Sequence record: OQ417966.1
Strand: one strand, 5' to 3'
Length of the DNA: 64,000 nt
Source: Mycobacterium phage prophiT36-1
This document shows positions 8,338 to 55,494 of the stretch, one piece after another. Each line of letters begins with the position of its first letter. Within the stretch, counting starts at the first letter, position 1. The position numbers and the translations under genes are program-made. The notes below the pieces were generated by a model. The model worked only from the letters and a program-made list of their open reading frames with translations, did no database searches and was not told where the DNA came from.

Positions 8338-8342
8338 GTGTG

Positions 8343-9810: not shown

Positions 9811-10040
9811 TGTCGGCCAAGTCCTTCGCGCAGCTCGTCAAGTATCCGCTGTTCTACATCGCGCTGGCCGGGGTCTCGTTCCGGATTGGTTGGTGTGCAG
9901 CCCATTACGTCAGTGACCGCATGGACAACTTTGATCCAGATATCGGTAGGGGTTATGTTCTGTTGAGACGTTTGTCTTGGAGGTATGTCGATGAGCGATC
10001 GAGCGTATCGGGTTGTTTACGGAGCTTACGCTGGGCTTGA
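9810..10040 (+). CDS. small membrane protein whose 3' part is altered by the element insertion (junction at 9949)
   Basis: ATG at 9810 overlaps the upstream TGA. One hydrophobic helix (LFYIALAGVSFRIGW). The reading frame runs across the element boundary at 9949 into element sequence. The original continuation would be the unique sequence at 55485 onward. Confidence 0.4.
   Translation: MSAKSFAQLVKYPLFYIALAGVSFRIGWCAAHYVSDRMDNFDPDIGRGYVLLRRLSWRYVDERSSVSGCLRSLRWA
9949..9970. repeat. left-end motif of the element: GGGGTTATGTTCTGTTGAGACG
   Basis: Contains TTATG and TGTTGAGACG. Their reverse complements (CATAA, CGTCTCAACA) occur at the right end (32669-32710). The same holds at 32717-32738 versus 55437-55478 in copy 2. 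Confidence 0.5.
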
Positions 10041-11379
10041 CGCAGCCGAGGTGCAGTTTCCCGGTGTGACCCGATGCCTTCCATCTGTGGAGCAGCAGTT
10101 CGGGGATGGGTTTCCTGTGCTTGTTGATGCCGATGGTTTGCCGGTGGAGGAATCGTTGGCGTTTCTAGTATCGCGGGTAGGGGCATCGACCTCAACATTG
10201 GCGCAGTACGCACGCGCTTTGATGGGGTTTGTCGAATTCCTGGGCTACCGGGGGGACGCCCGGCTTTTAGATGCGGCGCCCCGTGACTTGACGGCGTACC
10301 GGTTGTACCGAACGAGGACGGGGGAATCTCCTGTCTCGGAATACTCGTTCCGGGTGGAAGCCTCGGCACTGCGACAGTTCTATGCGTGGGCAGTTGAGAC
10401 TGGCCTCCTGGAGCGCTCTCCTGTCAAGCAGTTGTCACGCAATGGCTGGGACAACCTTTCTACCAACAGAATGCGTCATTCTAAGATTCGTCATGTAGAT
10501 AAGTTTCTGTACGAAGCACTGCTGCGAGCGGCTGCTCAGGGCAGCGTGGATGCGGGCGTTCGGAGTGCTTCGCTACGGAATGTGGCTGCAATCAAGACAT
10601 TTGCAACGACTGGGCTTCGCCTTGGTGAGCTTGCGAGCCTTCTGACCTTCGATATTGATCATGCTGTCAGATTGCGCCGGGCGCTATCTGTGGAGATGGA
10701 GTCGATCACAAAGTACCGAGTCAACCGCAATGCGTTGATTCCGTTCTATGCCACAGACGCGATCCGGCGGTATCGAAAACTTGAGCGCCCTAACGTGGTG
10801 GTTCGGCATCAGCGCGCGTTGGGCAAACGTCTGGACAGTCTTTTTGTGATCAGCGATTTCAATGAATCCACTCGCCGTGTCTCCGGCCGGTGGCGAGGTC
10901 GACGGCACCAGTATCTGCTGCATTTGGTGCCTGTTGAGCTGCGGTTGAAGGCTGTTTCAGTTAATTCAAATGGCAGCGTGGAGCCGCTGTGTTTGTTCTT
11001 GAGCGATAGCCGAGGGCAAGGGATGACGAGGTCTGGGTGGGAAGGAGTGTTCTCCGAGGTCAGTGATCAGATGATGCGCCAGGATCCGACGGATGGGCGG
11101 ATCCGGAAGGTCACCCCGCATGATCTGCGGCATACGTTCGCTATCAATTATTTGAGGGCGGCCCATGGGGAACGGGCCAAAGTGCTCCAGGAGACACCGT
11201 TCAAGGATGGGCCGCCGCTGCGTGATCCGTTGATCGATCTTCAAGAGCTGTTGGGACATGCGACCGCAGCACAAACGATGCGTTACTTGAGGTATGTCGA
11301 GGACATCGACCGACTCATTGCGTCGGCTGTTCCCGGCCAGGGTGATGCGGGAGGGGGCGAGCATGCCCCGCAGAAATGA
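9985..11379 (+). CDS. tyrosine recombinase (phage-integrase family), first of trio (RitA-like)
   Basis: 464 aa. C-terminal catalytic signature HDLRHTFA ... LLGHATAAQTMRYLRY (H-x-x-R ... H ... Y). N-terminal SAM-like core-binding region. The GGAGG RBS spacing favours the second ATG at 9991. Confidence 0.85.
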   Translation: MSMSDRAYRVVYGAYAGLDAAEVQFPGVTRCLPSVEQQFGDGFPVLVDADGLPVEESLAFLVSRVGASTSTLAQYARALMGFVEFLGYRGDARLLDAAPRDLTAYRLYRTRTGESPVSEYSFRVEASALRQFYAWAVETGLLERSPVKQLSRNGWDNLSTNRMRHSKIRHVDKFLYEALLRAAAQGSVDAGVRSASLRNVAAIKTFATTGLRLGELASLLTFDIDHAVRLRRALSVEMESITKYRVNRNALIPFYATDAIRRYRKLERPNVVVRHQRALGKRLDSLFVISDFNESTRRVSGRWRGRRHQYLLHLVPVELRLKAVSVNSNGSVEPLCLFLSDSRGQGMTRSGWEGVFSEVSDQMMRQDPTDGRIRKVTPHDLRHTFAINYLRAAHGERAKVLQETPFKDGPPLRDPLIDLQELLGHATAAQTMRYLRYVEDIDRLIASAVPGQGDAGGGEHAPQK

Positions 11380-13267
11380 ACGCAAGGACCTCGACCGTGA
11401 GGGTGTTGACGTTGCGCGAGGCGCCGCCGAATCTCGGCCAGCTGCGGTGGGAGTTCGCAGGCTCGCTCAACCGGGCAGGCCCGGCATGCAGGGGACCGCA
11501 CAGATAGATCCCAGCTCATACCAATGCCGCCGTCTGGCGGCCCAGCTGGCCGACCAGTGGGTTGAGATGGCGGCTGGGCGTTCGCGCTCGGTGATCGCCG
11601 TTCACCGTCAGGCGCTTGATAATTTCCTGAAATATGTTGATAAGTTGCATGATTCAGATGTGAGCCTGGATCATGATCCCGCGGTAGTAATGGCGGTGTT
11701 TGATGCATGGGCCAAGGATCTGATTGCACTGTATGACGAAAATTCGATCATGCCGTACCGGATGTCGAACATCGTCCAGACACAGATGGCTGGTGCTGTT
11801 GTCGATGGGGTGATCACCGACGAGGTGTTGGCAGCATATGCGCGTGGGCCCGCGGTAGTCCCGAAACCGCGAGCACAACCGCTCGACGAGTTCAGTAAAG
11901 ACGAACTCAAGCGCATGGTGCTGGCTGCGCGCGCACATATACGAGCAGCTCGAAAGATCAGGGAATGGGCCACGAAAACTATCCGTGCGTACGAATCTGG
12001 GAAATTGACCCACGCGGATCAACGCTGTCTGGGCCACATGCTGCAGATGGCTACCCGAGGCGAGCGCATCGCCATACAACAGCCGTGGGATGCACATCCG
12101 GAGTCGCTGCGCGATCTCTTCCCCGACGAGGCCTGGTCGCTTTATCAGGCAACAGGCCTGAACGAGACGAAGAATTCAGTTGCCTTGTCCTGCTACCGCG
12201 CGACCCTCGCCCGGCCAATCGACCTGGTTCCTTATCGGGTATTGCTTATGGCAGGCACAGGCGTTGCAGTGGAAGAGATCTCGGCATTGACTGTGTCAGA
12301 TATCGAATGGCTCGAAGATGGCGTCAGAGTGCAGATGACCAAATCGCGAGCCCGGCGGTCAAAAGGACGGTACTTCCCAGGATCCGCTGAGCGCGGTGGC
12401 TGGGATGTTCCCGCGCTTTTGCAGTCGCTGCTGGATTTCACTGAACCGGTCCGCGCGATCGCAGGTGCACAGTTCCAGGACTGCCTGTGGCTATCGTTCA
12501 AGACAAAAAGACAGTCCCACAGTGAATCTGGTTGCGCCCCGGCTCCCGCAGACTTCGGAACCGCCAACTTGGCATCCTGGATCGATTCGGTCAAGACAGT
12601 CCACGACATGGGCGATATTTCCACCCCACATGACATGCGGCGGATACGTAAGACAAAGGTCGCCCAGCGTGCAATTGATCTGCGTGGCGCAATGGCCGAC
12701 ATCGCTGGCGATGACCACACCAGCAGAGTCTTCTTCCAGCATTACGGACAGACAACATCGCTGAAAGTGTATTCAGGATCGGTAATTTCGGGCTTCCAAA
12801 CCTCACTCGCTGAGGCAGTAAAGACAGGCTTCACTGCCTTCCTGGACAGACGTGCTGCGGTACCGGCGTCGATCTTGACCGAGGCGCTGCCCATCGAGCC
12901 CGCTCAGGCACACAGTCTGCGCTCCGGTGCTCACGACATGGGAGTTGTCGACTGCCAGAACCCGTTTAACTCGCCCTTTACCAAACAAGGCAAGTTATGT
13001 GGGTCCGCGCCCTTATCATGTCTGATGTGCGAGAACGCGGTTGTCTTCACCGACCATCTCCCCAACATCGTGGCGCTTATACAAGCAATGGACAACGCGA
13101 AGCGGTCACTGGCACCCGATGACTGGATTGCCACCTGGGGGCGGCAATACGCTGCGGCGCAGGCATTGATGTCATCGGTGCCCGAACGAGCTCGCGCCGC
13201 CGCGGCGCGCAAGGCCGCTGCCGCGGTAACAGATCTGCCGGCCTGGTTGGGGCCGGGTAACCAGTGA
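11363..13267 (+). CDS. tyrosine recombinase-like protein, second of trio (RitB-like; Arg-I position appears substituted)
   Basis: ATG at 11363 is preceded by a GGGAGGGGG RBS and overlaps the first gene's end by 17 nt. The track ORF 11294 start is internal to gene 1. Motifs: PHDMRRIRKT (HxxR) and DDHTSRVFFQHYGQTTSLKVY (H...Y). Confidence 0.65.
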   Translation: MPRRNERKDLDREGVDVARGAAESRPAAVGVRRLAQPGRPGMQGTAQIDPSSYQCRRLAAQLADQWVEMAAGRSRSVIAVHRQALDNFLKYVDKLHDSDVSLDHDPAVVMAVFDAWAKDLIALYDENSIMPYRMSNIVQTQMAGAVVDGVITDEVLAAYARGPAVVPKPRAQPLDEFSKDELKRMVLAARAHIRAARKIREWATKTIRAYESGKLTHADQRCLGHMLQMATRGERIAIQQPWDAHPESLRDLFPDEAWSLYQATGLNETKNSVALSCYRATLARPIDLVPYRVLLMAGTGVAVEEISALTVSDIEWLEDGVRVQMTKSRARRSKGRYFPGSAERGGWDVPALLQSLLDFTEPVRAIAGAQFQDCLWLSFKTKRQSHSESGCAPAPADFGTANLASWIDSVKTVHDMGDISTPHDMRRIRKTKVAQRAIDLRGAMADIAGDDHTSRVFFQHYGQTTSLKVYSGSVISGFQTSLAEAVKTGFTAFLDRRAAVPASILTEALPIEPAQAHSLRSGAHDMGVVDCQNPFNSPFTKQGKLCGSAPLSCLMCENAVVFTDHLPNIVALIQAMDNAKRSLAPDDWIATWGRQYAAAQALMSSVPERARAAAARKAAAAVTDLPAWLGPGNQ

Positions 13268-15750
13268 AGACAGCACAGCTCGGTTCCCCAGGGCCAGTCG
13301 CGGCACCGGTTTCGTCCGACATCTTCGCCGACACCGAAGATGTATTCCTGTCCCGCCCGGACAGGATCGCTGGCGCCCCCGCATGCCTGTTTAGCGAGCA
13401 GGTATGGGATGCGACGGGTGTGCTGCCTCGGCGCGCTAACATCGGCCGCCATCAATTGCGCATAATCTTTCCGCAGCATCCGGCGTGGTCGCTGCGGTCT
13501 CGTGAGATTGCGATGACCTTGCTTAACAGCACCGACCCACGGTTGCTCGCACGATCGGTCTCCTTCGGCAGCCGTACGTTCTCCCTGGCGCATGTGCGAT
13601 CGCGCTGCGAGACATACAAAACCGTGGCGGCGTGGCAGACAGCTCAAGGCTTACCTGACGACATTTCGGCCTGGGGCGCCCGCGACTGGGTAGCGATGGT
13701 CGAAGCCGAAATCGCCAGGGGCGTCAAAAACGGGACCGTGCGCAATCTCATCTGCGCTATCCGCGACCTTGTCTTCCTTGGGCCCATCTTGACTGGCGGC
13801 GGCATCGCATCAGACCCATGGAACGGCAAGGCAACGAAACTCATCGCCAAAGGCGCCGTGGCAGGACGAACTGAAGTAATCGCCCCGGCACGTTGGATAC
13901 CGCTGATAGGTGCGTGCTGGACATACATCGACACCTTCGCCGAAGACATCCTGAGTCTGCGTGTGAGCCATCAGTGTGACCTGCGCCCCGGCATGCCGGA
14001 ATGGAGGCGCCGCTCGGAAGTAAGCGATGACGAGCTGCTCACCGCATACCTGGAGTCCTCCGGTGCCGTTATTCCCGCTAAGACTCGTGACGGTGGCCCG
14101 GACCCGAGCTGGTGGCGCCTATCCAAATTGGTAACCGCCGACCGGTCTTCGGCAATCTTCAAAGAAGACAGGGCAGCGGGGCGCCGCCGCAGAGAGATGG
14201 TGTATCAGGCGCTCGCCAACAACGTGGCCCGTTATGTAGCCCTCACTGCCAGTGAATTCGAAAATCTTTTGGCACAAGGGATTTCCAAGAAACTCGCGGG
14301 CAGCGATGCCGAGACCATAGTACGGATCCAGGGCGCCGACGAGATGCTCGATGCGTGGATTGACGCTGCCAGCAACCGAGTCGCAGTCACGTCCACAGAA
14401 CTATGCAGCTCGCCGGGAAAGATCGCTGAAGACGACATCAATTGGGCATTGATGGAACGGATCGTGTTCCGTTCAGAAGGCGTGACTGGCCTGCTCGGGA
14501 AGGGCTGGGCAACCTCTGTCCGCCGCAGGCGCAAACTACTTAAACTCGCCCGCTCAGGCCGAGTTTTCGCATCCGCCAGTGGTGTCGGTGTGATGGGCGT
14601 ACCGCGCGACTGCACTGGCTTCACCCTAGTCGGCGCACCAGGCAGGCAGATCCCTTGGCGGGAATCAATGTCGGACTATGAGGCGCGGTGCGAACTGCGC
14701 GCCTTGCGGGCATCCTGCTATGTCTTCATCGCCGCGATAACAATGATGCGCGACAGTGAGATTCAAGATATGAAGCGAGGCTGTATACGTACCGATTACG
14801 GCGTCGCTTCTGTGAAATCACACCTTTACAAGGGGCGTTCGGGCAAGACGGTCGCACACTGGTGGATCATCGATGAAGTAGCCACAGCAATCAGAGTGCT
14901 GGAACGACTCAGCTGTCATCCAGAGTATCTGTTCGCACGATTCGTCGACGGAGAACTCGAGAATCCTGAACCCGGTATCAGGTCAGGACTCGAGATTGCG
15001 TTTCTGCTCGATCATTTGGCGGCCACCGGCGCCCGAAGCGGGATCGCACCGGTGCCCGAGGGGCCCGTGATTTCCGCGCGAGCTCTGCGCCGTACCACTG
15101 CATCCATCAGCCGCGAACTGGGAGGCAACGAGCTTGCGGTAAGTCATCAACTCAAACACGCCATCAACTACGGCTACTCGAACGTTACCAGCGCCTATAT
15201 GGCACCAGACCCGGCATGGGCAGACCTGCTCAACACCAACAGGTCCGAGGACAACCTTGAGCACATGGTGACCGTCGTGCAGCAGTCCGCGCGCACCAGC
15301 GCCTCCTTGGCCGGTCGCGGCGGTGAGCGGCTGACCCAACAGATTGCCCAAGCGGTCGAACAGAGCGCAGGCCCTGGATACCCCGGTTCGGTGCTCTCCG
15401 ATGAGGAGCTAGCCATCCTGCTGAGAAAAATCGCGCCGCAGATCCGTTTCGGACCTGCCAACGCGTGTCTGTACGACGAAGAGAACGCGCTATGTCGGCG
15501 CGATGCCACCACCGAAATCCAGGGGCCGCTTCTGGGACTGTGTCAACCGTCGCGCTGCGCAAACTCGGTGATCGGTACCGAACACATGCCTGTGTGGGTC
15601 ACCGAGTTGCAGACATTGCAGAAGACCATCGCCAGCCCCCGCGTGAGTCCGCCTCGACGACAGGCACTTTCAGAACGAATCACCGACGTACAGCACGTAC
15701 TGAGCCAGCTCCAAACACGACCGCAAGCGGGCGACCATGGGCAGCCGTGA
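13264..15750 (+). CDS. large tyrosine recombinase-like protein, third of trio (RitC-like, 828 aa)
   Basis: GTGA/ATGA overlap with gene 2. Box I-like MMRDSEIQDM, then ALRR and SHQLKHAINYGYSNVTSAYM (R...H...Y). Unusually long N-terminal region. Confidence 0.6.
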   Translation: MKTAQLGSPGPVAAPVSSDIFADTEDVFLSRPDRIAGAPACLFSEQVWDATGVLPRRANIGRHQLRIIFPQHPAWSLRSREIAMTLLNSTDPRLLARSVSFGSRTFSLAHVRSRCETYKTVAAWQTAQGLPDDISAWGARDWVAMVEAEIARGVKNGTVRNLICAIRDLVFLGPILTGGGIASDPWNGKATKLIAKGAVAGRTEVIAPARWIPLIGACWTYIDTFAEDILSLRVSHQCDLRPGMPEWRRRSEVSDDELLTAYLESSGAVIPAKTRDGGPDPSWWRLSKLVTADRSSAIFKEDRAAGRRRREMVYQALANNVARYVALTASEFENLLAQGISKKLAGSDAETIVRIQGADEMLDAWIDAASNRVAVTSTELCSSPGKIAEDDINWALMERIVFRSEGVTGLLGKGWATSVRRRRKLLKLARSGRVFASASGVGVMGVPRDCTGFTLVGAPGRQIPWRESMSDYEARCELRALRASCYVFIAAITMMRDSEIQDMKRGCIRTDYGVASVKSHLYKGRSGKTVAHWWIIDEVATAIRVLERLSCHPEYLFARFVDGELENPEPGIRSGLEIAFLLDHLAATGARSGIAPVPEGPVISARALRRTTASISRELGGNELAVSHQLKHAINYGYSNVTSAYMAPDPAWADLLNTNRSEDNLEHMVTVVQQSARTSASLAGRGGERLTQQIAQAVEQSAGPGYPGSVLSDEELAILLRKIAPQIRFGPANACLYDEENALCRRDATTEIQGPLLGLCQPSRCANSVIGTEHMPVWVTELQTLQKTIASPRVSPPRRQALSERITDVQHVLSQLQTRPQAGDHGQP

Positions 15751-16135
15751 GGAAATCCGTGCCGCGATGGAACGCCTCCTAAACGGCGACGCCCAGCACA
15801 CCGACGGACGCCTAACCAAAACCAACCTTGCGGTAGAAGCCGGCGTGGGTCGGGCGACCCTCTACCGCCAGCACGACCTGATGGCCGAATGGGCGCGCCG
15901 CGTCACCGAATCAGACATCGCCCCACCCGCCGCGTCTGCCGCGGCCACGATCGCACACCTGACCCGACAGCTGGCCGACGAACGCTCCCGCCGCCGCGAA
16001 TCCGACCGCATCGCCAACGGCCTGGCCTTCGTGGTAGCCGAGCTCTACCGCGCGCTAGAGGCTCGGACTCCCCCAAATTCTTCACGCGGCACGATCATCC
16101 CGATAAACGCCAAAACGCGAAGGCGCGCAGACTAG
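15737..16135 (+). CDS. small HTH DNA-binding protein (TetR/IS3-OrfA-like helix-turn-helix)
   Basis: ATG overlaps the end of gene 3 by 14 nt. TNLAVEAGVGRATLYRQH is a classic HTH. Arg/Glu-rich helical C-terminus. Confidence 0.5.
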   Translation: MGSREEIRAAMERLLNGDAQHTDGRLTKTNLAVEAGVGRATLYRQHDLMAEWARRVTESDIAPPAASAAATIAHLTRQLADERSRRRESDRIANGLAFVVAELYRALEARTPPNSSRGTIIPINAKTRRRAD

Positions 16136-16196
16136 CCTGAGCCCATTTCACATACGAGCGAATGAGTTCATTGCTGATCGAAGCAGTACGGGATTC

Positions 16197-19100
16197 GTGC
16201 GTGGGAGCGGTGCCCGCCATGAATGGACAGCGCCGGCATCTGATCGGGACCGTTCGAGCGCGACTTACGTGGGGAGAGGTTACGTGGCCGACAGCCAGGC
16301 ACTTCGGAAAGTTCGGTATGCAGACAAGTTCCGGGGCTATCAGGGCCAGGCTATTGCTATGGCCCGGAAGTATCGGCGCAGCTTCCACGACGAGGACGGC
16401 GCGCAGGGGCTTGATGCCGCATTGGTTTACCACCCCACGGGTACGGGCAAGACAGCCGTCATTGCCGGTCTAACGCACGCGGCACACGAAATCGGCAATG
16501 TCCTGGTGCTGACCACACGCGAAGTCATACGTGATCAACTGGTGCGCGAGCTCAGCGGTGGCCTCTTCATTGACGAGAACAAGTTCGCGCTGCCCATGCG
16601 CCACAAACTTTCTAAGGTCTGCTTCGCGGTGGCCGAGTCCCGCCAATTACTCGGCACAGCATTAGCGTTGCATGCGGCGACGCGAAAACGCATCCCCGAC
16701 CAGGTGGTCCGGGAGTTCAGTCAGCGGCAGTTCGAGCGGCTTGCACCCGAGCCCGACATCGACATCGTGAGCCACTTGCATGAACAGAACTCTGTTCTCA
16801 TTCTCACCGTCCAAATGCTGGCCCGCTTGCACCGAGGCCGCACCGGGCAGTCACCGATATACGACGTCTTGCGTCAACACGTAGACCTGGTCGTCTTCGA
16901 CGAAGGACACTACGAACCTGCACCGCGCTACAGCGAGGCAGTGCGGGATCTAGGGCGCCCTACTGTGCTGTTGACCGCTACCCCTTTCCGTAACGACCTG
17001 AAAGCTTTTCGCATCACACCCGAGCATGTCGACATTTATCGATTCACCCAGGCGGTGCAGCAGCAGCACATCAGAGAAGTCCAGATCGTGCAGCGCACAC
17101 CGACACGTGACCCGGACAAGTTCTGCGCCGATGTTCTCGATTTCTGCACATCGGTGTGGGGACCCGATCCAGGGCAGTGGACCCGCCGGATCATTATTCG
17201 CTGCGACGATGTCGAGTGCGTAACACGCCTTGGCGAAGCATTCATAGCCCATGGCTTCAAGGACCGAGTCATCGGCATCCATGACCGCTACACCAACCCT
17301 GGGCAAGGCGACGGGCAGCCATGGCAATACCGCACAGTCCCAGCGCCGTCGGAAACCCAAGCACTAGTATGGATTCACCAGCATAAACTGCTAGAGGGCG
17401 TCGATGATCATCGCTTCCAGATTCTGGCTTTCTTCAACCCACCGACCAATGTGCGCGCCATTGTCCAACAAATCGGCCGAGTCGTAAGGACCAAGCCTGG
17501 TGGCCAAGACGCAGGCAACGCATACGTTTTGGACTATTTCGCCGGGCGCATCGCTAGATACTGGAGTCTATATCGCGGGTATGACGCTGCAGCCACGCCC
17601 GAGGCAGTCACTATGACCGCATCACGGTTCTACCTCACGAGATTCACCGCTGCACTGCCGCAGTTCGATTACATCGACCAAAAGTTTCGCCAGCGGCTCG
17701 ATCTGTTCGACCACGACCAGCAAGCCCAGCTCACTGACACCATCGCCGACGAGATCTTCTTCAAGCGCACTGTGGCACTTAGACAGATACCAAACACCCT
17801 GACGATCCAGGACGTTGTCCCGCTTCTCGAGATCGCCCTTAAGGAAGGCGATTACGAGTACCAGCGATTCGATGTGTCGAAGATATGCCCCAATACCGCT
17901 CTATTCCTGTGTTCCCGGGTGAACAATGTCGACTTTCTCAACACTTACTTCTTCCCCGAGCCGCACCTAGAAGCCCGGCTCGTGATGCTCTTCCCAGAAC
18001 ACGCACTGCTGGCCTCGACAAGTACAGCAGGCGCATCGGTCAAAGATGGACTAGGGATTCTTGCGCGGTACGATCCGACCCGACTTGAGCGACTCCTATT
18101 GCCGGGCAACGATAACCGGGGACGCATCACCAGCGTTTCCTCTAAGAACATGAACCTCAGTAGCCGGGCAGTGCGCGGTCGGGTCGTCTACGCAGCATCC
18201 ATGGCTGACATCCCGGCAGCCCTCGATGAGCACGGCCATGTCGTCTCCACGGTCACCGGCTACAACGGCTCGGCTCCACAGGTCATAGACCACCTCGAAT
18301 ACCAAGTAAGTGTGTTGGCCGATGAACTTGCCAGATCAGGGGCGACCACCGAAGGGCCTGGCACTGGTGCAACCCTTGTGCGCCGTTACGTGGGCATCGC
18401 AAGCGGTCACGTGACTGAGTACCTTCCACCACTGCGCATCAAGGCATTCCGTACTTGGGTGCAATCACTGGCGAACCAGATGGATGACCCCGCACGCTAT
18501 GACCGAGTCTTTAGTCGCTACGCCGAGCTCGCGGTAGGCGAGACGGTCTCGGGCGCAGCCCAGAACCTGCTATTGGACTTCACCGAGCTCACCGAGCTCT
18601 ACCGGCACCGCCTCACCGGCCAATGCGTTATCAGCGATGATGTGTGCGCCGACAGATTAGGCGATCCATACGGTACACCCGAACAGCCTGCGGCACAGTT
18701 CATCATGACGATAAATGACACCCCATACACAATAGCCGCCACCTTCAACACCTCGTCCAAGCGGTACCGCATCGAGTGCCCGGCGCTCGACTATGACTTC
18801 ATCCCGATCGATGACCGCGACGGCTCGTTGATACGTGCGATAAACCAGATGCAGGCTTTCACGGTGGTCCCAGAGGACCGAGATCGCATCTACGCGCACG
18901 GGAGCTTCTATGCGCCGTCCCTGAAGTTCGGGCCAGACCGATTTAACCCCAACGGTTTCCCTATCGGACACCTGCTTTACCCCTCGCAACAGTTCAAGTC
19001 TAAAGAGACAGAAAAAGGGGATAAAGTCATTGGCGGCAACCGTTACCAGACACACAGCCTGTTCGGCCTGATCGACAGCTGGAAGTCAGGTTTCGATACC

Positions 19101-19682: not shown

Positions 19683-19718
19683 TTGTTGCTACAGAGTATA
19701 AATCAAGATCTGCCGGAC

Positions 19719-19976
19719 TCAGTGGTCGGCGAAGAAGTCGCCCGCTGAAGCATCCAACGCCTCCGCAATGTCGACGAGGCGTTCATACAGAAGTCCCCGG
19801 CGGCCGTGCTCGACGTCAATGAGTACGTTGCGAGTCACACCCGACGCCAACGCGAGCGCCTCTTGAGTCAGGCCCCGCGCAAGACGCAACGCGCGGATGC
19901 GGGCGCCGACCGCCTGCCGAGTATGTTCCCAGGCAATCACACGCTCGGGATCGTTCTGCTGAGGGCGGGTAGGCAT
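19719..19976 (-). CDS. XRE-family (Cro/CI-type) HTH transcriptional regulator
   Basis: 85 aa. LRLARGLTQEALALASGVTRNVLIDVEHGRR is a canonical XRE HTH. Divergent from the downstream plus-strand genes. Confidence 0.75.
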   Translation of the reverse strand: MPTRPQQNDPERVIAWEHTRQAVGARIRALRLARGLTQEALALASGVTRNVLIDVEHGRRGLLYERLVDIAEALDASAGDFFADH

Positions 19977-19986
19977 TAACCCAGTT

Positions 19987-42744: not shown

Positions 42745-42754
42745 TAACCCAGTT

Positions 42755-45625: not shown

Positions 45626-45995
45626 ACTCGCCGCAGGACCCGGGAACGGCCGACCTCCGCTAAGCCTGCCTGCCCAGTGCATCGGTGGGTCGGTAGTGGT
45701 TTGGGACTGTGTCTGATTGCCAGCCATTCGGATTGGGCGAGCTATGCCTGACAGTTCGCACCTGACTCTCGCTGTCAGTTGTCGCCCACATACCGCTCCA
45801 ACGCTATCCAGACTGGTCCTGGCACTTCCGAAGTAGCGACGTACTGTGATCTTTCAGTTCAGAACAGTGTTTACGCGGGGGTCCTTCGCGGCAGCTCCTC
45901 GCAAAGTCGGCGGCCGGTAGATATTGTGTCGCACTGCGACAACAATCAGATTCAGATCCCACCGTCTACCTGTCGCGTCTAACTGAGGGGGTTCC

Positions 45996-47801: not shown

Positions 47802-48220
47802 TACGACCGCGACGCCGGCTACTGACCTTGCGGACGTGCTCAATACAAGTGCTCAGTTGCGCGCGGAGCTAATCTGCAGTTGGGTCAGGTATGTACTCGA
47901 TTGTCGCTTATGGTGGTTGGCGAGTGGTATTGAATCGTGGGGGACAGGGTTATCTTTAGGCATGTACTTGTCGGTGTATATGGCTGGTGCTAACGGATTT
48001 CAGCGCTGTGAATGTTTTATTCGGCCGAGCATCTCAGCCTTCGGGGCAAGCGATCAGTTTCTCCACGGCTGCTGGTCGAACCTCGACATGGATTCGTCTG
48101 AGGCCTGCAACAGGTGGCACTAACCCGACCTCTATCCATGCGGATACTTAATCGACATCCGCGAGAGCGGCACCCTGTTCGCGCGACCCCAACTGGCGTT
48201 CCTACCCAGCTACGGGCATA

Positions 48221-49015
48221 TTGCTGCCAAATCTGTTGGTAAACACCAGTTTACGGCTTTCGCCGTATACACCAATTCTCGTGCGAAGAGACGCATCTGA
48301 AGCGCTCCCAGCCTCTCCGGTCGCAGGAAAGAAAATACTCTGGCCGATACGTGGTTCGATTATGCCCATGCATGGTTTCCCTTTGGCCCCAGGCTCTTTG
48401 GGCTACAAGCGCTGCCACCTCACCGTCGGGGGAGAGTTTCGACTGTCACAGACTGATTGTTGCGATGCCGGCCAAGACGAGTTGTTCGGCGTCCTCGACG
48501 ACCGATCAGCTGTGGTGTTCATCCACCCAAACGCGCTTCCCGCTGCGCCACCTGACGGCGTACCGCCGTTCGCGGTCGACTTCCTGCTGGACACCACTCG
48601 CGCGGCCTACCTGTTAGTGCATAACGGCATTCGTGCGCGGTTTCCGAATACCCATTTCATACTCAGCCACGGCGGGGGCTTCGTGCCTTACGCCTCCCAC
48701 CGGATGGCATTCTCGCTCGAATTGGAAACCGGTAACCCCGCTGAGGAGATGCTGGCATTGTTGTCGAGCTTCTATTTCGACACGGCCGTGACGTCCAGCC
48801 CTGCATCCTTGCCGAGCCTGCTGGCCTTCGCCGACTCCGGCCATGTCGTCTACGGATCGGATTGGCCCTTCCTACCTGCCGACGCCGCTAGGAGGTTCAC
48901 CGGTAATCTGGGTCGTTACCTTGGATTAGATGATCGGGCCCGCGCCGCAATCGATCGCGGCAACGCCGAAAAGATCTGGGGAACACCGCCGCCAACCCGT
49001 GACGAGGTCGGCTAG
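48221..49015 (+). pseudogene. amidohydrolase-2 gene remnant (copy 2)
   Basis: Identical to 25453-26247. Confidence 0.45.
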
Positions 49016-49588
49016 TCGGCGGGCAGGCGCTGTGGCCGACAAGGATCGGGCCAACAAGCAACCGCCAACATCAGGGCGCTCTCAGAGTATCGCGATCGCG
49101 CCATCCACCTGTACAACGCCCAGGGTCTTGGCGCGCGTTCGTGCTGGTCGTAGCTTCCGTCGGGATGGATGAGAGGTCAGGCGCACCCCAAGCCGATCAG
49201 CACTCGATTGCCGTTGTTCGCCGGTATTCTGGGGTAGGTTGCGGCGTCCGTATTCCGTCTGGCTGATTCATGAAAACCCGCTTGCTTGCATCAGGTTTTG
49301 AAGATTGAGACGAACCGCCGAGGGACCGAGCAGAGGCTGCTGAACTACTAGGTGCTGCCCCCCGGTGAATTCGCCCGTCGACCGGTTGACTGTCAGCGCC
49401 CGGTGCGCCTTCCCCGAGCAATAGACATCCAGAGCAGCGGAGCCGAGTTAGCGCTTGTAGTGGCAAGCAATTACCCCTTCAGAATCGAACTCTGAGCGAG
49501 CTATGTTTGCGAGCCAGCACCGAACGCCGCTCGACCGCGATCGGCACATAGTGCCCGGCCATCGGCCGGGCTGCGAGATGATTGATCT

Positions 49589-49939
49589 ATGCGGTACATC
49601 AAGCGAACCAACACTGTGGAACTGACGGCTCGAAACGTCACCGCGCTGCTCGCCAAGCTCGACGACAGACTTTCCGCTCGTACACTGATTTCACCTGACG
49701 ACGACTTCGTCGTGCGAGCCATAGAGAACAACGTCAGCCTCGACAGTGCCGAGCCGCCAAAGGCGGTCCCTGTCCATACAACGGTGACGCTTACCCGCGA
49801 CGACCTGTGGTACCTGACCACGCCGGGCGCGACGCTTACCCACGGCGCATTTACGTTGCGGTCTGTTACGGACGAAGCGCACTACAGCGATCGCGCCCCT
49901 GGAGCTGTCTACATGCCCGAGTCCGGGGTTCAGTGGTAG
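49589..49939 (+). CDS. hypothetical small protein (copy 2)
   Basis: Identical to 26821-27171. Confidence 0.4.
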   Translation: MRYIKRTNTVELTARNVTALLAKLDDRLSARTLISPDDDFVVRAIENNVSLDSAEPPKAVPVHTTVTLTRDDLWYLTTPGATLTHGAFTLRSVTDEAHYSDRAPGAVYMPESGVQW

Positions 49940-50092
49940 CAAATACCGTATGACGACGACCGTCCCACGAGCTCCGGAAGGGCACTCCCCTCCCGCCGCG
50001 AGGCTGCGAGCAGCCGCACCATACATCGCGGGTGTTGACCAAACCAGTTGGTGAACTCGAGCTAGTAGCAACCCAGGTCCCGACAGACGATC

Positions 50093-51697
50093 GTGCTGTC
50101 GGCGCCAGCAGGCACACTGAGTGTCGTGGGCACAGATCTGGAGGTCTATAGGCGCGGGGCCCCATGGACACCGCAAGAGATCACTGAGCTCATCGAGCGC
50201 ATCCGCGCAGGGTCAGGCCGCACCGACATCGCGCGCACCCATGGCCGCACACCCGGGGCCCTCGACGCGGTAGCCTGGCGCCTCCTGTCAGCAGACCACA
50301 GACCTGAAAAGAAGACCCGCCAGGCAGTGGAGTTGCTACGTGCCGAGATCAACGACATCTCCGCAGGGGCAGAGACGGATTGGTGGGCGCGCTATCTCCA
50401 AGGCCGCAAGATAGCCAACGCCGCGAAACCCGCAAGAACCAGGTCTCCCCAGGCGCCCAAAACGACTGCGACACCGAAAACCCCCAAACCGCTTCTGCCA
50501 CTACCGGAGTGTGTGCAAACGTTCGCCGAGCAGCCAGCAATTGACTGGACGCAGCCAGGGACGGAAAGCGAACTTGGCCTACTGATCGTTCAAGTCGTCA
50601 ACGAGATCGTGGACCCACGGAACCGATACATCATGGCCCGGCGACTCGGATTGATCGACGGATCAAATACTTTGGAATCCATCGGCGAAACACTGAACCT
50701 AACCCGCGAACGGGTCCGCCAACTACAAAACACCGCGATCACACAGGTCCAGCACGACGCACACCGCCTCGGATCGGCCGCCGCAACGCTCGCAGTGGTC
50801 TTCAACTTCCTCGATAAGGACCCCACCGCAATCGAGGCACTGGCCCAATCCTTGTTGACCGCCGCACAAGAGCTATTCAGCTGCCAACCGACCTGGCTTA
50901 TCAAATCCGTCAGCCGCATGGGCGGGCGCACACCACGACAGGCTGACGAGATCGCCGCGGCAGCTGCGGCGATCCGTGACGCCGAACGTCGGCGCGGACG
51001 CGAACTTGCCCATGAACAACGGCAGATCCTCACCTGCGATCGCATCGTCGACAAATGGATTCACGCAGCCACCTGGCCCCCGCACCTGAAACACGCCGAT
51101 TCCGAGCGCAGCACACAACGGCGCCGAATGCCAACGCCCTCAGGAATTGCCTCCGTCGGCTCTTTCGATTCCGAAAAGAACGGCACCGTTGTCCATTTCG
51201 AATCCCTACTTGAAGAATCCGTGTTCATCACCGCCGAAGGCAGCGACAAGATCCTCACCTATCAAGAGCAGCCCTGCCAGATCGCATACATCGGGGAGGA
51301 CGGGCAATCACACACGTACTACCCTGACCTACTCCTGACGCTCAACGATGGCCGCATGCTGCTAGCCGAGGTCAAGCCACTTTGGCAGATGGCATTGACC
51401 ACTAATCGCATCAAATGCGAAGCAGCGCAACGCTATGCGGCACAAACTGGATGGGGATGGGTATCGGTTGGCTCCAGCGGCCAAGCCTACCGAGACCTTG
51501 AACAACGAGATATCAGTGACTTGACGCGCGCATCGCTTACCGCGGCGCTCAACGAAGGCCCGGTGTCCTGGGCGCACTTGCAGGAGCTACGAACTCAGGC
51601 GCCAATCACAGCGATGGACGTCGCGGCATTCGCCGTGCAAGAAAACATAGGGCTTGAACTGTTTCCATATCGCCTGTACCACGTCAACGACGTGTGA
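50093..51697 (+). CDS. sigma70-r4-like HTH plus PD-(D/E)xK nuclease-domain protein (copy 2)
   Basis: Identical to 27325-28929. Confidence 0.6.
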   Translation: MLSAPAGTLSVVGTDLEVYRRGAPWTPQEITELIERIRAGSGRTDIARTHGRTPGALDAVAWRLLSADHRPEKKTRQAVELLRAEINDISAGAETDWWARYLQGRKIANAAKPARTRSPQAPKTTATPKTPKPLLPLPECVQTFAEQPAIDWTQPGTESELGLLIVQVVNEIVDPRNRYIMARRLGLIDGSNTLESIGETLNLTRERVRQLQNTAITQVQHDAHRLGSAAATLAVVFNFLDKDPTAIEALAQSLLTAAQELFSCQPTWLIKSVSRMGGRTPRQADEIAAAAAAIRDAERRRGRELAHEQRQILTCDRIVDKWIHAATWPPHLKHADSERSTQRRRMPTPSGIASVGSFDSEKNGTVVHFESLLEESVFITAEGSDKILTYQEQPCQIAYIGEDGQSHTYYPDLLLTLNDGRMLLAEVKPLWQMALTTNRIKCEAAQRYAAQTGWGWVSVGSSGQAYRDLEQRDISDLTRASLTAALNEGPVSWAHLQELRTQAPITAMDVAAFAVQENIGLELFPYRLYHVNDV

Positions 51698-52093
51698 CCG
51701 ACGTTCGCCGTCAACCGTTGCGGGAATGCGCCCCGTGAGATGAGTATTCGCCCATCGGCGGCCGCCCATGGGCACTCGTATGGATACATACACGATGGGT
51801 ACTCACCCAAACAGGTACCCAGCTGCGCGGGCGACGCGAGCCGGCGTGCCATCTCGGATTCCTAGCTAATCCAATGCTTGGGCTGTTTCTGCGCACATGT
51901 CACACATATACTGATCGCCACGTAGCTGCAGGTTACGCATCGGTTCGGTACTAAGCCCGCCTGTGACGCTCGATATAGCAAACATAGAGATCTCGCAGAC
52001 GCCTGGACATAACCCAGTTTATTCTGTCATGATTCTCGCATCAGCTGCACCCACACGCGGTGTACAGCAAGTATCGGGAGGGGCAAGCTGCGC

Positions 52094-53281
52094 ATGATTA
52101 TGAGTGATCTTTGGCGCATGTCGACGGGTTTGCGTAGAGCTTCGGCGGTGGTCGCCGGTGTGGCGCTAGCCTTCGGTGGAGCGAAGGTGACCAGCGACCA
52201 CACCGTGCCTGGCAGCGGGTTTTCGACACTCCAGACAGCCGCTGCGGATCCGACCGGTCCCACGGGTGGCCCTGGCGGGGGGCCGGGTGGGATGAATGGA
52301 TCCCAGTTCCAGCCCCCAGGCTTGCCGCCGCAGATGCCTGACTATCAGGGCGGTATCAACCAGCCGCCGTTAGATCAGAATTCTGGTATCAGCATCTACA
52401 ACACGGGATCGCCAGGAGCACAGCAAGTTCCATCGCAGCAAGGTGCACAACAGTCTCAACAGGGGCAGCAGCCTGCGCACGGAACCCAAATCCCTGATTA
52501 TCAAACAGCAACCCCATACACTCAGGGTCCCGGTACGGAGAATCCGGATTACCAAGCACCACAACAGAATTCTCCCCAGCAGGACCATCAGCAAAATAAT
52601 GCTCCCACGCAGACTCAGCAGCCCAGTCAAAAAGACCAGCAGGACCGCGAACTGCAACAGCAATGTCAGCAACAGGCTCAGTATTACGGTCTTGCTGAAC
52701 AGATGGCCAGCTTTATCGCGTCGGCAATGGGTGGTGCCGGGAGCCTCTTCGGGCAACCCAGTCGCCAGTGGGGGCCTGCCTTTGAATGCAGTTGCGCACC
52801 TGAGCAGGGTGGCCCCCATAAGCAATCACCTGGCGACGATGAAACAAGTCAGCCGTGCGTACCAACCGATGGCATTCCAAAAAGGATCGTGGGCGCGGAT
52901 TACACCTACAATTTGGCCACACAACAACTATCCTGGTTAGGCACTTTCCCAGGTTTGATGCCGTTCTCGGGAACCGTAAGTGTGGCTCCCGGCGCCTCAG
53001 TTTTCATACCGGGCAACGCCCAATGGACAAGCGCGACTTTGACAATCTGCCAAGCGCCCTCCGAAGGCCCTAGCGGTCGCAATCCAGCGCAAGATAAGCT
53101 CCTAACCAAGGGAGACATCAAGAAGTTGGAGGACGCCGGATTTGACGTTCACGAGCTTAAAGGCGGTAAGAACGCCTCGAAGTTCGATCTGTACAAGGAC
53201 CGAGAGGGAAATATCTACGTGAAGCCAAAAGGCGGGCGTGGCGAGGGCGATCCGCTAGGGATAAATATCAATGACATCTGA
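52094..53281 (+). CDS. secreted Pro/Gln-rich toxin-like protein (copy 2)
   Basis: Identical to 29326-30513. Confidence 0.6.
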   Translation: MIMSDLWRMSTGLRRASAVVAGVALAFGGAKVTSDHTVPGSGFSTLQTAAADPTGPTGGPGGGPGGMNGSQFQPPGLPPQMPDYQGGINQPPLDQNSGISIYNTGSPGAQQVPSQQGAQQSQQGQQPAHGTQIPDYQTATPYTQGPGTENPDYQAPQQNSPQQDHQQNNAPTQTQQPSQKDQQDRELQQQCQQQAQYYGLAEQMASFIASAMGGAGSLFGQPSRQWGPAFECSCAPEQGGPHKQSPGDDETSQPCVPTDGIPKRIVGADYTYNLATQQLSWLGTFPGLMPFSGTVSVAPGASVFIPGNAQWTSATLTICQAPSEGPSGRNPAQDKLLTKGDIKKLEDAGFDVHELKGGKNASKFDLYKDREGNIYVKPKGGRGEGDPLGININDI

Positions 53282-53681
53282 GCTCGATCCTTCCAGTATT
53301 CCCGTTATCAGAACGCTGCTGAACATTACGGGCTTGTTTGACCCCGACACATTTACAGCTGCAGTTTTACTGACGCCAACACGGACTGTGCGTGCAGGAG
53401 AAGCGCGCTCTCCACAACTCGCCTTCACTGAAGACGCCTGGAAAATTGACCTCGGCAAGCACGAGGCCGTCCACTTAGAGAGCGAAATGGATCGGCTACT
53501 CGCCCTGCTTTTACCAGTGGGTGAGAGATTCCGCGAAACTGTGGCAGCGATGGGCCTCAGCGCCGAAGTAGCATTTCAGTGCAGTGCGGACGCGGGATAC
53601 TATCCTTCAATATCTTTGCGCCATGACCAGATAAAGCAGCTAGCTGCCCTTGGGCTTTCGCTCGATATTGACATTATCTAG
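53271..53681 (+). CDS. coupled small protein, putative immunity (copy 2)
   Basis: Identical to 30503-30913. Confidence 0.45.
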   Translation: MTSELDPSSIPVIRTLLNITGLFDPDTFTAAVLLTPTRTVRAGEARSPQLAFTEDAWKIDLGKHEAVHLESEMDRLLALLLPVGERFRETVAAMGLSAEVAFQCSADAGYYPSISLRHDQIKQLAALGLSLDIDII

Positions 53682-53731
53682 ATAGCAGACCGGAATTACG
53701 GCTGCTACCGATTATATTCATTCGAGGGGAT

Positions 53732-54298
53732 ATGAAGATTCGAATTCTCGTAATTGCGGCGTGTGCCGTAGCCTTAACGGCGTGTGGGCAATTAGAAAAA
53801 CCAACACCTGCCGATCCTGCATCGCCGTCAACTCGTGAGTCGACGGACTTCAATAACATCCCCGGACAGTTCCCTTCGCCGGCGACACTGACCACGAACG
53901 GGCAGGCTGAAGCGCCAGTCGGAGGCTGCGTGAATCTGAGCGGACCCGCAGTCAACGCCTTACTCACACTCGTTGATTGTGGCTCGCCACAACATACGTA
54001 CCGGATCGTGCAGCGCGTCAACGTTCCCCAGGAATGCGGTGATATTGACCGTTCGTACTACCACAATTCCCAGGCCACTGGCCAGTACACCGCGTGCCTC
54101 GACTTAGCCTGGGATGCCAGCGCCTGCATCAGCCTGGCCCAGCCTGTAGCGAAAGTCTCCTGCACCGATCCGAACGCGCCCCGCAAGATCAAACCAACAA
54201 AGATTGTCCTCGATTCAACGACCCTCGATAGCTGCCCTGACGGAGGATATCCGCACCCGGTACGCAAATTCACCGTCTGTACCGAAACCCAGGACTAA
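53732..54298 (+). CDS. lipoprotein (copy 2)
   Basis: Identical to 30964-31530. Confidence 0.6.
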   Translation: MKIRILVIAACAVALTACGQLEKPTPADPASPSTRESTDFNNIPGQFPSPATLTTNGQAEAPVGGCVNLSGPAVNALLTLVDCGSPQHTYRIVQRVNVPQECGDIDRSYYHNSQATGQYTACLDLAWDASACISLAQPVAKVSCTDPNAPRKIKPTKIVLDSTTLDSCPDGGYPHPVRKFTVCTETQD

Positions 54299-54514
54299 GC
54301 GGTGGTGTCCTGGGGCGTCCAGGCGCAGGTGGATGCGGTAGTTCGCTTTCGTTGAGGCGCTGTGCGCCTGGTTGTCGTAGAGGTTGTGGCCGATGCTGCG
54401 GACGGCGTGTGTTCTGGTGATCAAGCCCAGAGCACGTAGTAACCGGAGGTAGTGCGGCGCCGATGATTGCTCCGTGCCTACAGCTTCTGCGAGGTCACTG
54501 ACCGGGTGCGGCAA
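54215..54514 (-). CDS. possible winged-helix regulator (copy 2, uncertain)
   Basis: Identical to 31447-31746. Confidence 0.25.
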   Translation of the reverse strand: MPHPVSDLAEAVGTEQSSAPHYLRLLRALGLITRTHAVRSIGHNLYDNQAHSASTKANYRIHLRLDAPGHHRLVLGFGTDGEFAYRVRISSVRAAIEGR

Positions 54515-54631
54515 GCCGTATGGGGCGAGTCGGGGAGCGGCACATTCAGCGGTACGGACAAATCTCTCGGCGGCGTGATCGGCATATTCGAGTGGTAACT
54601 CCGGTGACGGCTGGTTGCTGCGATTGGCTTG

Positions 54632-55153
54632 ATGGGTTTGCCCTGGGCGGCTAGTTTGTTGGGAATGTCAGGTTGGTGGGGCCGGTGGAGGTCCGCAGGT
54701 CGGGCCTCGGTAAGTAGTCAGCACACGGTGGTTGTTGATGCGGTCGAACACGTATTGGCTGGAGTTTCCGTATCAGATTGCTCGGTACCTGCGTTGGCGC
54801 AGCAGTGGGTGCAGGGCGAGGGGCGGGAGTTGGTGATCGAGGATGTGGTGTTGCCTGCGGGGGTGTTCGGACGTTGGCTCTCGGTGCCGGGGCAAGACAT
54901 TGTCCAGGTGGGTGCCGGCGTTGTCGGCCGTGACCGCACGATCGCTCATGAGTTGGGGCACATGGTGTTGGGGCATCGGGGCCGCCCAGTTACTGAGTAT
55001 GTCGAGGGATTGGTGCAGGCCGCTTCTGCGGATCTGATTACGCACATGTTGCAGCGGGCGTGCACAGAGGAGCCGGGGCAGCAAGAGGCGGCCGGATGGC
55101 GGCAGGACGAGTTGGCGGAGCATGCGACGACGCTAGCGCGCCTAATCGATTGA
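54632..55153 (+). CDS. ImmA/IrrE-like HExxH metallopeptidase (copy 2)
   Basis: Identical to 31864-32385. Confidence 0.55.
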   Translation: MGLPWAASLLGMSGWWGRWRSAGRASVSSQHTVVVDAVEHVLAGVSVSDCSVPALAQQWVQGEGRELVIEDVVLPAGVFGRWLSVPGQDIVQVGAGVVGRDRTIAHELGHMVLGHRGRPVTEYVEGLVQAASADLITHMLQRACTEEPGQQEAAGWRQDELAEHATTLARLID

Positions 55154-55260
55154 AACCGACGAAGGTCATCCTGAACTCCGTTAGCGTCGAAGGTTGTCCG
55201 ACAGGTGGTTTCGCGCATCCGCTACGCCGGTTCACCATTTGTACGGAGATGCAGAAGTAG
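55153..55260 (+). pseudogene. lipoprotein paralog remnant (copy 2)
   Basis: Identical to 32385-32492. Confidence 0.5.
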
Positions 55261-55494
55261 ACGCATGCGGCCGACAGCCGGGAGGTTTGGCCGGGATCGA
55301 GTACCGCACCTCGAGTGCATGTCTGACGGACGTGGGATCCAGGTGACAATGGCATTCGAGGCCACAGTGGAGCGGTAGACGGTCACGAGCTTTTTCGGGG
55401 TTGGCCGAGGGGGCTCCATGATCGCTGCACGGATTCCGTCTCAACATGTCTGTAGAGACAGCTTGACGTCCGTACATAACGCGGGGAAGTACGG

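Follow-up and report, generated by a model that had tools for sequence, protein, structure and literature searches.

Three described groups of multi-tyrosine-recombinase transposons come closest to the element discussed here, a 22,759-bp unit that is written twice, head to tail, in a 64,000-nucleotide (nt) stretch of Mycobacterium phage prophiT36-1 (OQ417966.1), called the window below. Idola et al. (2023; PMC10214605) described the SEs, or strand-biased circularizing integrative elements; their tfp-srap blocks were found only in Gammaproteobacteria, and those of GInts in Gamma- and Betaproteobacteria. Van Houdt et al. (2012; PMC3414803) surveyed the actinobacterial Tn554-related transposons, which consist of an ordinary recombinase, a recombinase of 611-828 amino acids (aa) and a TnpC-like partner, and which occur on chromosomes and plasmids of Mycobacterium, Streptomyces and Rhodococcus. 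The GInts (2017; PMC5385486) have been described in Proteobacteria, Verrucomicrobia, Bacteroidetes and Firmicutes. Both SEs and Tn554-related elements show a 'fingerprint/footprint' behaviour, in which 6 bp of the target are found at the left junction (attL) and 6 bp of the donor site at the right junction (attR) (PMC10214605).

The tandem insertion in prophiT36-1 was published by Amarh et al. (2023; PLoS One, PMC9934374, Fig 5), and the duplication itself is already known. They reported the direct duplication of a segment of ∼22.5 kb with 18 genes per copy, among them three integrase-like genes, a helicase, an AAA ATPase, a sigma/TnsA fusion and a lipoprotein, and suggested RecET-mediated resolution as possible. 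The complete tandem was reported again at a second T36 locus, between T36_00429 and T36_00464 (PMC9934374). Their account treats the same sequence, leaving the element unclassified and its ends, home site and junctions unanalysed. What is added here are the ends, a home site in tadA, a 6-nt donor footprint, a 9-nt spacer between the copies and the recognition of an SE/Tn554-type module.

Insertion junctions in the prophage and the tadA home site

The repeat, its junctions and the two prophage flanks are laid out in the window as follows.

1..9946, + strand: left prophage flank with minor tail and tail-associated genes, from a prophage of cluster MabL, 100% identical to OQ417964.1 46793-56740
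9947..9952: attL 6-nt spacer TAGGGG, the central 6 bp of the phage target, beside the left end of the element
9953..32711, + strand: element copy 1, 22,759 bp, left end TTATGTTCTGTTGAGACG, right end CTTGACGTCCGTACATAA
32712..32720: 9-nt spacer CGCGGGGGG that joins the copies, with right end ACATAA before it and left end TTATGT after it
32721..55479, + strand: element copy 2, identical to copy 1, with its genes at the copy-1 coordinates + 22,768
55480..55485: attR 6-nt spacer CGCGGG, the donor footprint, equal to the 6 bp flanking the element at tadA
55486..64000, + strand: right prophage flank, opening with the last 16 nt of phage gene 81, 100% identical to OQ417964.1 56746-65259

The window is that of prophiT36-1, a prophage of M. 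abscessus, because its flanks match prophiT48-1 contiguously, a hybrid open reading frame (ORF) at the left junction equals PROPHIT361_81, and the published description agrees. Flanks 1-9948 and 55487-64000 match prophiT48-1 (OQ417964.1) 46793-56740 and 56746-65259 at 100% identity, and there the two are contiguous. The unit has a G+C content (GC) of 59.0%, as against 64.8% in the left flank and 62.2% in the right flank.

When the window is compared with itself at a shift of 22,768 nt, 22,770 positions agree without a mismatch (9949-32718 = 32717-55486), and a repeat finder returned this one repeat family with no second long repeat. An exact 22.8-kb repeat by chance is impossible, and the doubling is confirmed as really present in the record sequence. 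The initial annotation, made from the sequence alone, had described an exact head-to-tail duplication at 9949-55484 with a unit of 22,768 bp and no divergence between the copies; the period proved exact, the coordinates held to within 2 nt and the copies are indeed free of mismatches. Its placement of two identical copies between the tail genes and lysA agrees with the record sequence, and its recombinase-bearing mobile element inside a prophage is borne out by a module with tyrosine recombinases. It overlooked the kind of element, the tadA home site, the donor footprint, the prior publication and the second tandem locus.

The empty phage site (attB) reads GATATCGG-TAGGGG-GAAGTAC. In the window, attL reads ...GATATCGG-TAGGGG followed by TTATGT, and attR reads ACATAA followed by CGCGGG-GAAGTAC; the phage target was neither duplicated nor deleted by the insertion. 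The element thus delimited has the ends TTATGT...ACATAA, which form a perfect terminal inverted repeat of 6 bp; another inverted repeat, of 10 bp, is displaced inward by 8 nt on the left and 33 nt on the right.

All long contigs read have the element within tadA, a T2SSE ATPase gene, where it splits the Walker A codons. There the junctions read GGCACGGG-CGCGGG, then TTATGT..., and ...ACATAA, then CGCGGG-CAAGACC, and the normal site is formed by the Walker A codons of tadA, GGCACGGG-CGCGGG-CAAGACC. Removal in silico of the element and one CGCGGG yields a 386-aa TadA with the Walker A sequence GGTGAGKTT, and exactly this reconstructed empty-site protein was found in 104 contigs. The TadA-element hybrid protein occurs in at least 453 M. 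abscessus contigs. In GCA_900139095.1, the distance from recombinase to lipoprotein is 20,973 nt, which is the spacing of a single copy. The phage site resembles the tadA site in the pattern GG-nnnGGG-nAAG. The flanking 6-nt repeat is perfect at tadA, and it agrees at three of six positions at the phage site.

The 6-mer CGCGGG at attR is a donor footprint, and therefore tadA is the donor site. Judged on its sequence, the attL/attR pattern in the prophage is the one that the footprint rule of SE and Tn554 elements predicts. The footprint pattern also means that the insertion is not a chimeric misassembly and that the insertion itself is real. A circular copy of the element with the joint ACATAA-CGCGGG-TTATGT would have used a 6-nt overlap to recombine with the phage site that resembles the tadA site; the 6-mer of the target would thereby stay at attL and the donor 6-mer go to attR, with no duplication of the target. 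Beside junctions, a home site and a module architecture that are directly observed, we infer a copy-out mechanism that would keep the donor copy. We are highly confident in the insertion and in its mechanism class.

The element end and the flanking unit were compared with a 37.3-kb relative on a Mycobacterium lentiflavum plasmid (NZ_CP092424.2, reverse strand, ∼490-37757 of the reverse complement; locus L029). Its ends are TTATGTTGGCTCAAGACA... and ...ACTTGACGTCCGTACATAA, the same terminal sequences as in the element, and it is flanked by TACTGG / TGCCGG, a 6-nt imperfect repeat with four of six positions in agreement. Sequence comparison confirms the element end at ACATAA and a 6-nt flanking unit, because this relative keeps both the ends and the 6-nt flanks. 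Its cargo differs, with genes for metal resistance (ars/cad) and phosphate transport (pst), for an AAA ATPase together with a helicase, for an HNH endonuclease and for toxin-antitoxin pairs. A copy in M. triplex (L019) is almost the same as this relative.

A more diverged relative, with ∼55-57% protein identity (P0026, P0048, P0075; a 172,090-bp Logan contig), was found at exactly the same tadA position, and its hybrid protein reads ...GGTGAGYVVLRRMSL.... Since a relative of ∼55-57% identity sits at the same position in tadA, members of the family have kept their choice of target through divergence.

Several further observations concern the tadA locus. An ATG in the right end of the element (window 32650-32711; L002 11687-12316) reads outward and fuses to the 3' part of tadA; the fusion MIAARIPSQHVCRDSLTSVHNAGKTTLL..., of 209 aa, is annotated in 167 contigs, and the insertion may on this sequence arrangement allow expression of an N-terminally truncated TadA. 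One assembly (CQA01080.1; P0020) carries a tadA-element hybrid ending in ...GGTGAGMFC; such an ending implies that its left junction differs by 1 nt (GGG-TATGT vs GGG-TTATGT), either from junction variation or from sequencing error. At two loci (L003, L007; 12232-20567), a further insertion breaks the tad locus immediately to the right of the element; this island has genes for an ApeA-HEPN protein, an XRE regulator, a DUF3892 protein, a tyrosine integrase and a peptidase of the M78 type. Mobile DNA has a hotspot in the tad region.

The recombination module and related transposons

Four co-oriented genes on the + strand, overlapping or abutting (9991-11379, 11345-13267, 13264-15750 and 15737-16135), occupy the left end of the element.

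9991..11379, + strand: IntA-type tyrosine recombinase, 462 aa, with Pfam Phage_integrase and a SAM-like N domain
11345..13267, + strand: Tfp/GinC-type degenerate recombinase-fold protein, 640 aa, with a Cys-rich C-terminal motif
13264..15750, + strand: IntB-type, abnormally long tyrosine recombinase, 828 aa, with a Cys4/His motif at the C-terminus
15737..16135, + strand: Srap/GinD/TnpC-type small protein, 132 aa, with an N-terminal TetR-like helix-turn-helix (HTH) and a long C-terminal helix

In an alignment of seven orthologues, IntA has the full R-H-R-H-Y set, with R210, H377, R380, H423 and Y432 invariant; 830 blocks of the collection list exactly this protein. IntB was found to have invariant R496 (in MMRDSE), R609/R610, H632 and Y645, with the box-II His not conserved, and weak Phage_integrase matches in three of four members. 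For the 640-aa protein, none of the seven orthologues has the box-I arginine, all share an R-x-R motif, a His and a Tyr, and one has a Pfam match. Its AlphaFold (AF2) model has a mean predicted local distance difference test score (pLDDT) of 64. The top 12 matches of this model in the PDB by Foldseek are all tyrosine recombinases (lambda Int, XerH, Flp, XerD), with E values of 0.06-0.4 that are not significant. Mapping of the catalytic residues by profile-to-PDB and profile-profile alignment was too weak, and only the XerA alignment at box I is consistent with loss of the arginine.

The 132-aa protein had no match in Pfam or NCBIfam. Its AF2 model has a mean pLDDT of 83 and helices at residues 3-15, 28-35, 39-44, 46-61 and 68-110, the last of 43 residues. 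Its Foldseek list consists mostly of TetR-family DNA-binding domains, with a probability of up to 0.84 and all E values above 0.1; the matches of lowest E are BusR and a phage protein, and none is significant.

The order of the module genes is kept in eight other loci. A profile scan of genome contigs with the IntB alignment returned eight loci only and was used for orthology, being uninformative on the frequency of tandems. One-to-one best matches in the same four-gene order were found in M. lentiflavum, M. triplex, Streptomyces and Winogradskya, on Serratia and Klebsiella plasmids and in a betaproteobacterial metagenome-assembled genome. The Sphingomonas plasmid pISP0 has the first three genes in the same order, with a fourth small gene neither annotated nor detected. 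Homologues of IntB lie on 223 plasmid records, mostly from Actinobacteria and Alphaproteobacteria, including Mycobacterium, Mycolicibacterium, Rhodococcus, Streptomyces and Microbacterium. Homologues of the Serratia counterpart of the 640-aa protein lie on 182 plasmid records, again mostly from Actinobacteria and Alphaproteobacteria; no Vibrio appeared among the plasmid relatives of the 640-aa protein in 60 rows or in the top genera listed.

A Cys-rich C-terminal motif is common to the 640-aa and 828-aa proteins (12953-13030 and 15466-15585; copy 2 at +22,768). Its pattern, C-x-C...C-x2-C / C-x8-C...C-x4-C...H, stays unchanged between Mycobacterium, Serratia and Sphingomonas, and its arrangement suggests that it may be a zinc-binding domain. 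We know of no described role for this shared motif.

On gene architecture and published descriptions of SE, GInt and Tn554, the element is assigned to the multi-tyrosine-recombinase transposons of the SE/GInt/Tn554 group, within the 'actinobacterial Tn554-related' clade, an assignment that does not imply common descent with the Tfp and Srap of SEs. The likeness to the SEs begins with the left end, where the order intA-tfp-intB-srap on one strand is the same. SEs insert site-specifically without target duplication, with 6 bp of the target at attL and 6 bp of the donor at attR, as does this element. Srap of the SEs has a TetR-like N-terminus and a C-terminal coiled coil, and the 132-aa protein has a predicted fold of the same type. 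In SEs, IntA and IntB carry RHRY and Tfp does not; here IntA has the full set, IntB lacks a conserved box-II His and the middle protein lacks the box-I Arg. SEs persist at the donor locus, for which the statement on the second T36 locus (PMC9934374) is a hint here. SE copy-out, with a nicked double-stranded circle, no empty donor site and a strict strand bias, is a feature of the SEs that would apply here by analogy only. The differences are the median SE size of 15.7 kb, as against 22,759 bp, the 13-19-bp imperfect terminal inverted repeats of SEs (motifs C, C'), in place of which only 6 perfect bp are found, and the hosts, which are mainly actinobacterial and alphaproteobacterial in the family described here and gammaproteobacterial in the SEs.

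The actinobacterial Tn554-related transposons have adjacent, co-oriented ordinary and long recombinases in an actinobacterial host, which are also present here, at 462 aa and 828 aa. In the position of their TnpC partner stands the small 132-aa protein, without a Pfam or NCBIfam match and with a predicted fold of the type reported for Srap/GinD/TnpC. A 6-bp junction sequence carried from the previous site is again the same. Tn554 itself lacks the middle, Tfp-like gene that is present here, and the 2012 survey (PMC3414803) left this gene unnoted and ends and targets undefined, and described no cargo this large. The element fits the Tn554-related class and adds the overlooked middle gene to it.

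The GInts have three integrase-like genes and a small fourth at the 5' end, together with variable cargo that is often for defence or addiction, and in this they are alike. High insertion specificity, circular intermediates and junction sequence variants in GInts are counted as a likeness. However, the non-catalytic protein of GInts is the third gene product (GinC), whereas here it is the second, and the third has an R...R...H...Y pattern. The short AT-rich 3' end of GInts is absent, the last 100-300 nt of the element having 56-59% GC vs 59% element-wide. GInts are flanked by imperfect direct repeats of 10-17 nt; here there is only the 6-nt flanking repeat, and insertion is site-specific at tadA. 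The GInt label, which was first considered for the three integrases and the small gene, was dropped on the gene order and the missing AT-rich end.

Two other candidates were rejected. RITs, or recombinases in trio, have three overlapping catalytic recombinases of ∼315-410 aa, 34-bp terminal inverted repeats and no fourth gene, and were ruled out because of the sizes of 462, 640 and 828 aa, the presence of a fourth gene and the lack of long terminal repeats. A phage satellite or second prophage was rejected as well: megablast of the insert against 50,697 phage records gave no match, and Pfam domain scans of the element found no structural or terminase domains. The insert contains no tRNA or Rfam features.

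The inner junction and the copy number

The spacer between the copies consists of the home-site 6-mer plus three extra G (CGCGGG+GGG), and the G counts beside the ends are 4 at attL, 6 at the inner junction and 4 at attR. A 6-nt spacer (CGCGGG or TAGGGG) is predicted by recombination of a circular joint with resident attL or attR, by homologous insertion of a circle, by unequal exchange and by rolling-circle over-replication. For the outer junctions, attL 4 + attR 4 = attB 5 + joint 3, whatever the inner junction. The outer junctions obey the rule for a monomer and the inner one does not, and therefore transposition of a preformed dimer is the simplest account: a single canonical event, in which the incoming molecule had the inner junction from the start, would account for the outer junctions. 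We favour, as probable, the overall explanation of a Tn554/SE-type element that moved from tadA into the prophage, with the tandem imported as a preformed dimer. That two copies are physically present in the prophage we consider slightly the better bet, and for movement of the dimer as one unit the chances fall somewhat short of even.

The second T36 locus bears on this account. In other M. abscessus genomes, tadA fragments lie roughly at genes 375-476, and T36_00429-00464 has 34 intervening genes, or 2 x 17; for these two reasons, this locus is probably the tadA site. If the dimer was formed first, the tadA attL is predicted to read ...GGGCGCGGG-TTATGT, with the same 9-nt inner joint, while a 3-bp-shifted insertion predicts ...GGGCGC-TTATGT.

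A number of results weigh against the preformed dimer. No canonical tyrosine-recombinase route yields the 9-nt inner spacer, and this includes formation of the dimer at tadA. A second insertion at tadA shifted by 3 bp would yield the extra GGG, but the 227-aa hybrid protein that it predicts is not in the collection, which seemingly lacks the T36 chromosome. The inner junction, searched with a variable spacer of 0-12 nt, had no match in viral and metagenome collections. The copy number comes from one assembly, and a tandem at both T36 loci is the pattern that depth-based resolution of a looped repeat node would leave. No IntA gene was seen downstream of the lipoprotein gene in the 24 longest contigs read per look-up, where short-read assemblies could have collapsed tandems. 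The SE-type strand bias, by which the left-flank 6-mer of the donor goes to attR, is uninformative since both tadA flanks are CGCGGG, and for the module itself, IntB and the Tfp-like protein score only weakly in Pfam and Foldseek. Exact look-ups of ORFs spanning the inner junction (with a 9-nt or 6-nt spacer) and of the ORF spanning attR returned no record.

The explanation that survives best beside the preformed dimer is an artefact of copy number, which the initial annotation had also named as a possible cause and which is a live alternative, with a substantial though minority chance of being right. There would be one copy in the prophage and one in tadA, a looped repeat node having been passed twice at both loci, and the source of the reads that join right end to left end would be circles, excised or copied out, or else a tandem present at one locus only. 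Amarh et al. stated as methods only 150-nt single-end Illumina reads with Newbler/Consed, with the closure of T36 undescribed (PMC9934374). Identity of the copies is automatic in graph assembly, and it is uninformative on age if the assembly ran twice through one repeat node. Both T36 loci are reported with the same tandem and no other strain read shows one, and SE-type elements form circular copies without emptying the donor site. The attP of prophiT36-1 was still amplified from filtered supernatant (PMC9934374); this amplification was done without DNase, says nothing on packaging and is compatible with the tandem and the single-copy views alike. Circles from either locus, however, should have a 6-nt joint (CGCGGG or TAGGGG), whereas the record has the 9-nt CGCGGGGGG; in addition, T36 is labelled a complete genome, and the tandem was presented by its authors as a finding.

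Formation of the dimer in place, either by successive monomer circles or by an excised circle that re-inserted by site-specific or homologous recombination, is very unlikely. In its favour are the site specificity of the element and the half-sites that every integrated copy restores, and it was derived here that two successive insertions into an 8-G target, with xxGGGG-type overlaps, would give precisely the observed attL, inner junction and attR. The target run has 5 G in five of the six empty-site loci examined, L014 giving no match to the motif. Two successive monomer insertions, with joints of 3 G each, need the 8-G target and are therefore ruled out by the 5-G targets seen; from 5 G, every in-place route leads to a 6-nt inner spacer or to a different attL or attR, and the identical tandem at the second locus would remain unexplained. 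Re-insertion of an excised circle, proposed in the initial annotation, fails in the same way, in that it predicts a 6-nt inner spacer and 9 nt were found. Amplification under selection was another of its proposals; as tandem amplification by unequal sister exchange, selected through a cargo gene, it can be dismissed as extremely improbable: dosage of the defence and toxin-immunity genes in the cargo could matter, but the exchange needs flanking repeats where the 6-mers differ (TAGGGG, CGCGGG), would give a 6-nt joint, and has to account for exactly two copies at two loci and none seen in hundreds of other genomes, so that no support for it was found.

Cargo, prophage context and significance

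The remainder of the element is cargo, given here for copy 1.

16284..19682, + strand: ResIII/SNF2-type helicase with a C-terminal domain matching the defence candidate PDC-S71
19719..19976, - strand: XRE-type HTH regulator, 85 aa, with Pfam HTH_31/HTH_3 on the identical gene in locus L008
23228..25033, + strand: OLD-family nuclease (ABC-type ATPase + TOPRIM), with Pfam AAA_21 and OLD-like_TOPRIM and PADLOC Old at E = 3e-19
25453-26247: amidohydrolase ORF, matching positions 128-288 of a 289-position Pfam model and called as 217 aa by gene callers
27325..28929, + strand: fusion of sigma-70 region 4 and a TnsA-like endonuclease N domain, 534 aa
29326-30513, + strand: polymorphic toxin with an Ntox33 C-terminus
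30503-30913, + strand: DUF4279 putative immunity protein, partner of the Ntox33 toxin
30964..31530, + strand: lipoprotein, 188 aa, with a signal/lipobox sequence
31960..32385, + strand: 141-aa protein with a HELGH (HExxH) motif and weak PADLOC matches

From its domains, the OLD-family nuclease is likely an anti-phage defence gene product. The partial model match indicates that the amidohydrolase ORF is probably a truncated cargo pseudogene, and the 141-aa protein is possibly an ImmA/IrrE-like metalloprotease, as its HExxH motif suggests. The exact lipoprotein is listed in 530 blocks of the collection. In strains L002, L003 and L006 (8639-9550), the Ntox33 gene was called as a 107-aa C-terminal fragment, as against the 395-aa form in the window, and the same loci have a 149-aa ORF on the opposite strand upstream of the fragment; the N-terminal region of the toxin seems to be variable or disrupted among strains.

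In the prophage, the insertion meets the following genes.

9112-9810: gene 80, in the left flank, followed by most of gene 81
9810..10040, + strand: hybrid ORF of phage gene 81 (natively 52 aa, a small membrane-type protein) and the left end of the element
55495-55779: gene 82, in the right flank
55776-57278: lysin A, in the right flank
57275-58447: lysin B, in the right flank
right flank: polymorphic toxin/immunity cassette

The 76-aa product of the hybrid ORF (9810-10040) is an exact match to WJJ55933.1, 'PROPHIT361_81 [Mycobacterium phage prophiT36-1]', and this exact protein occurs in only one contig of the collection, of 110,792 bp. The site is empty in all 24 contigs read with an identical phage gene 80, and insertion at the phage site is rare. 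The initial annotation held that the added DNA, if real, would preclude packaging; the prophage measures 110.8 kb vs 65.3 kb, and Amarh et al. likewise expected the enlarged prophage to be too big (PMC9934374).

The insertion (9810-9952/55486-55779) swaps only the last four codons of phage gene 81. It also moves gene 82, lysin A and lysin B 45.5 kb away from the late and tail genes, on whose strand they lie. With 45.5 kb now in between, lysis gene expression driven by the late operon is probably impaired, whatever the limit on packaging.

Taken as a whole, the locus could be a natural snapshot of donor-retaining SE/Tn554-type transposition in an actinobacterium, in which a preformed dimer of the 22.8-kb unit was copied from tadA into a prophage with a donor footprint. 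We put this complete scenario forward tentatively, and it is on balance unlikely. If true, it would mean that the SE-type module, for which Gammaproteobacteria are the only hosts reported to date, extends to a large clade in Actinobacteria and Alphaproteobacteria that has gone unrecognised, that such elements can move as multimers, and that they can cripple prophages by parting the lysis cassette from the late operon.

What had been a peculiar insertion is thus reinterpreted as a member of the little-studied multi-tyrosine-recombinase transposons. The element is present in hundreds of clinical M. abscessus genomes, with probable defence and toxin cargo. It offers a concrete actinobacterial model for SE/Tn554-type transposition and a reason to revisit the narrow host range claimed for SE-like modules. 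For phage therapy of M. abscessus, it is of interest that the element can inactivate prophages and may add phage defence.

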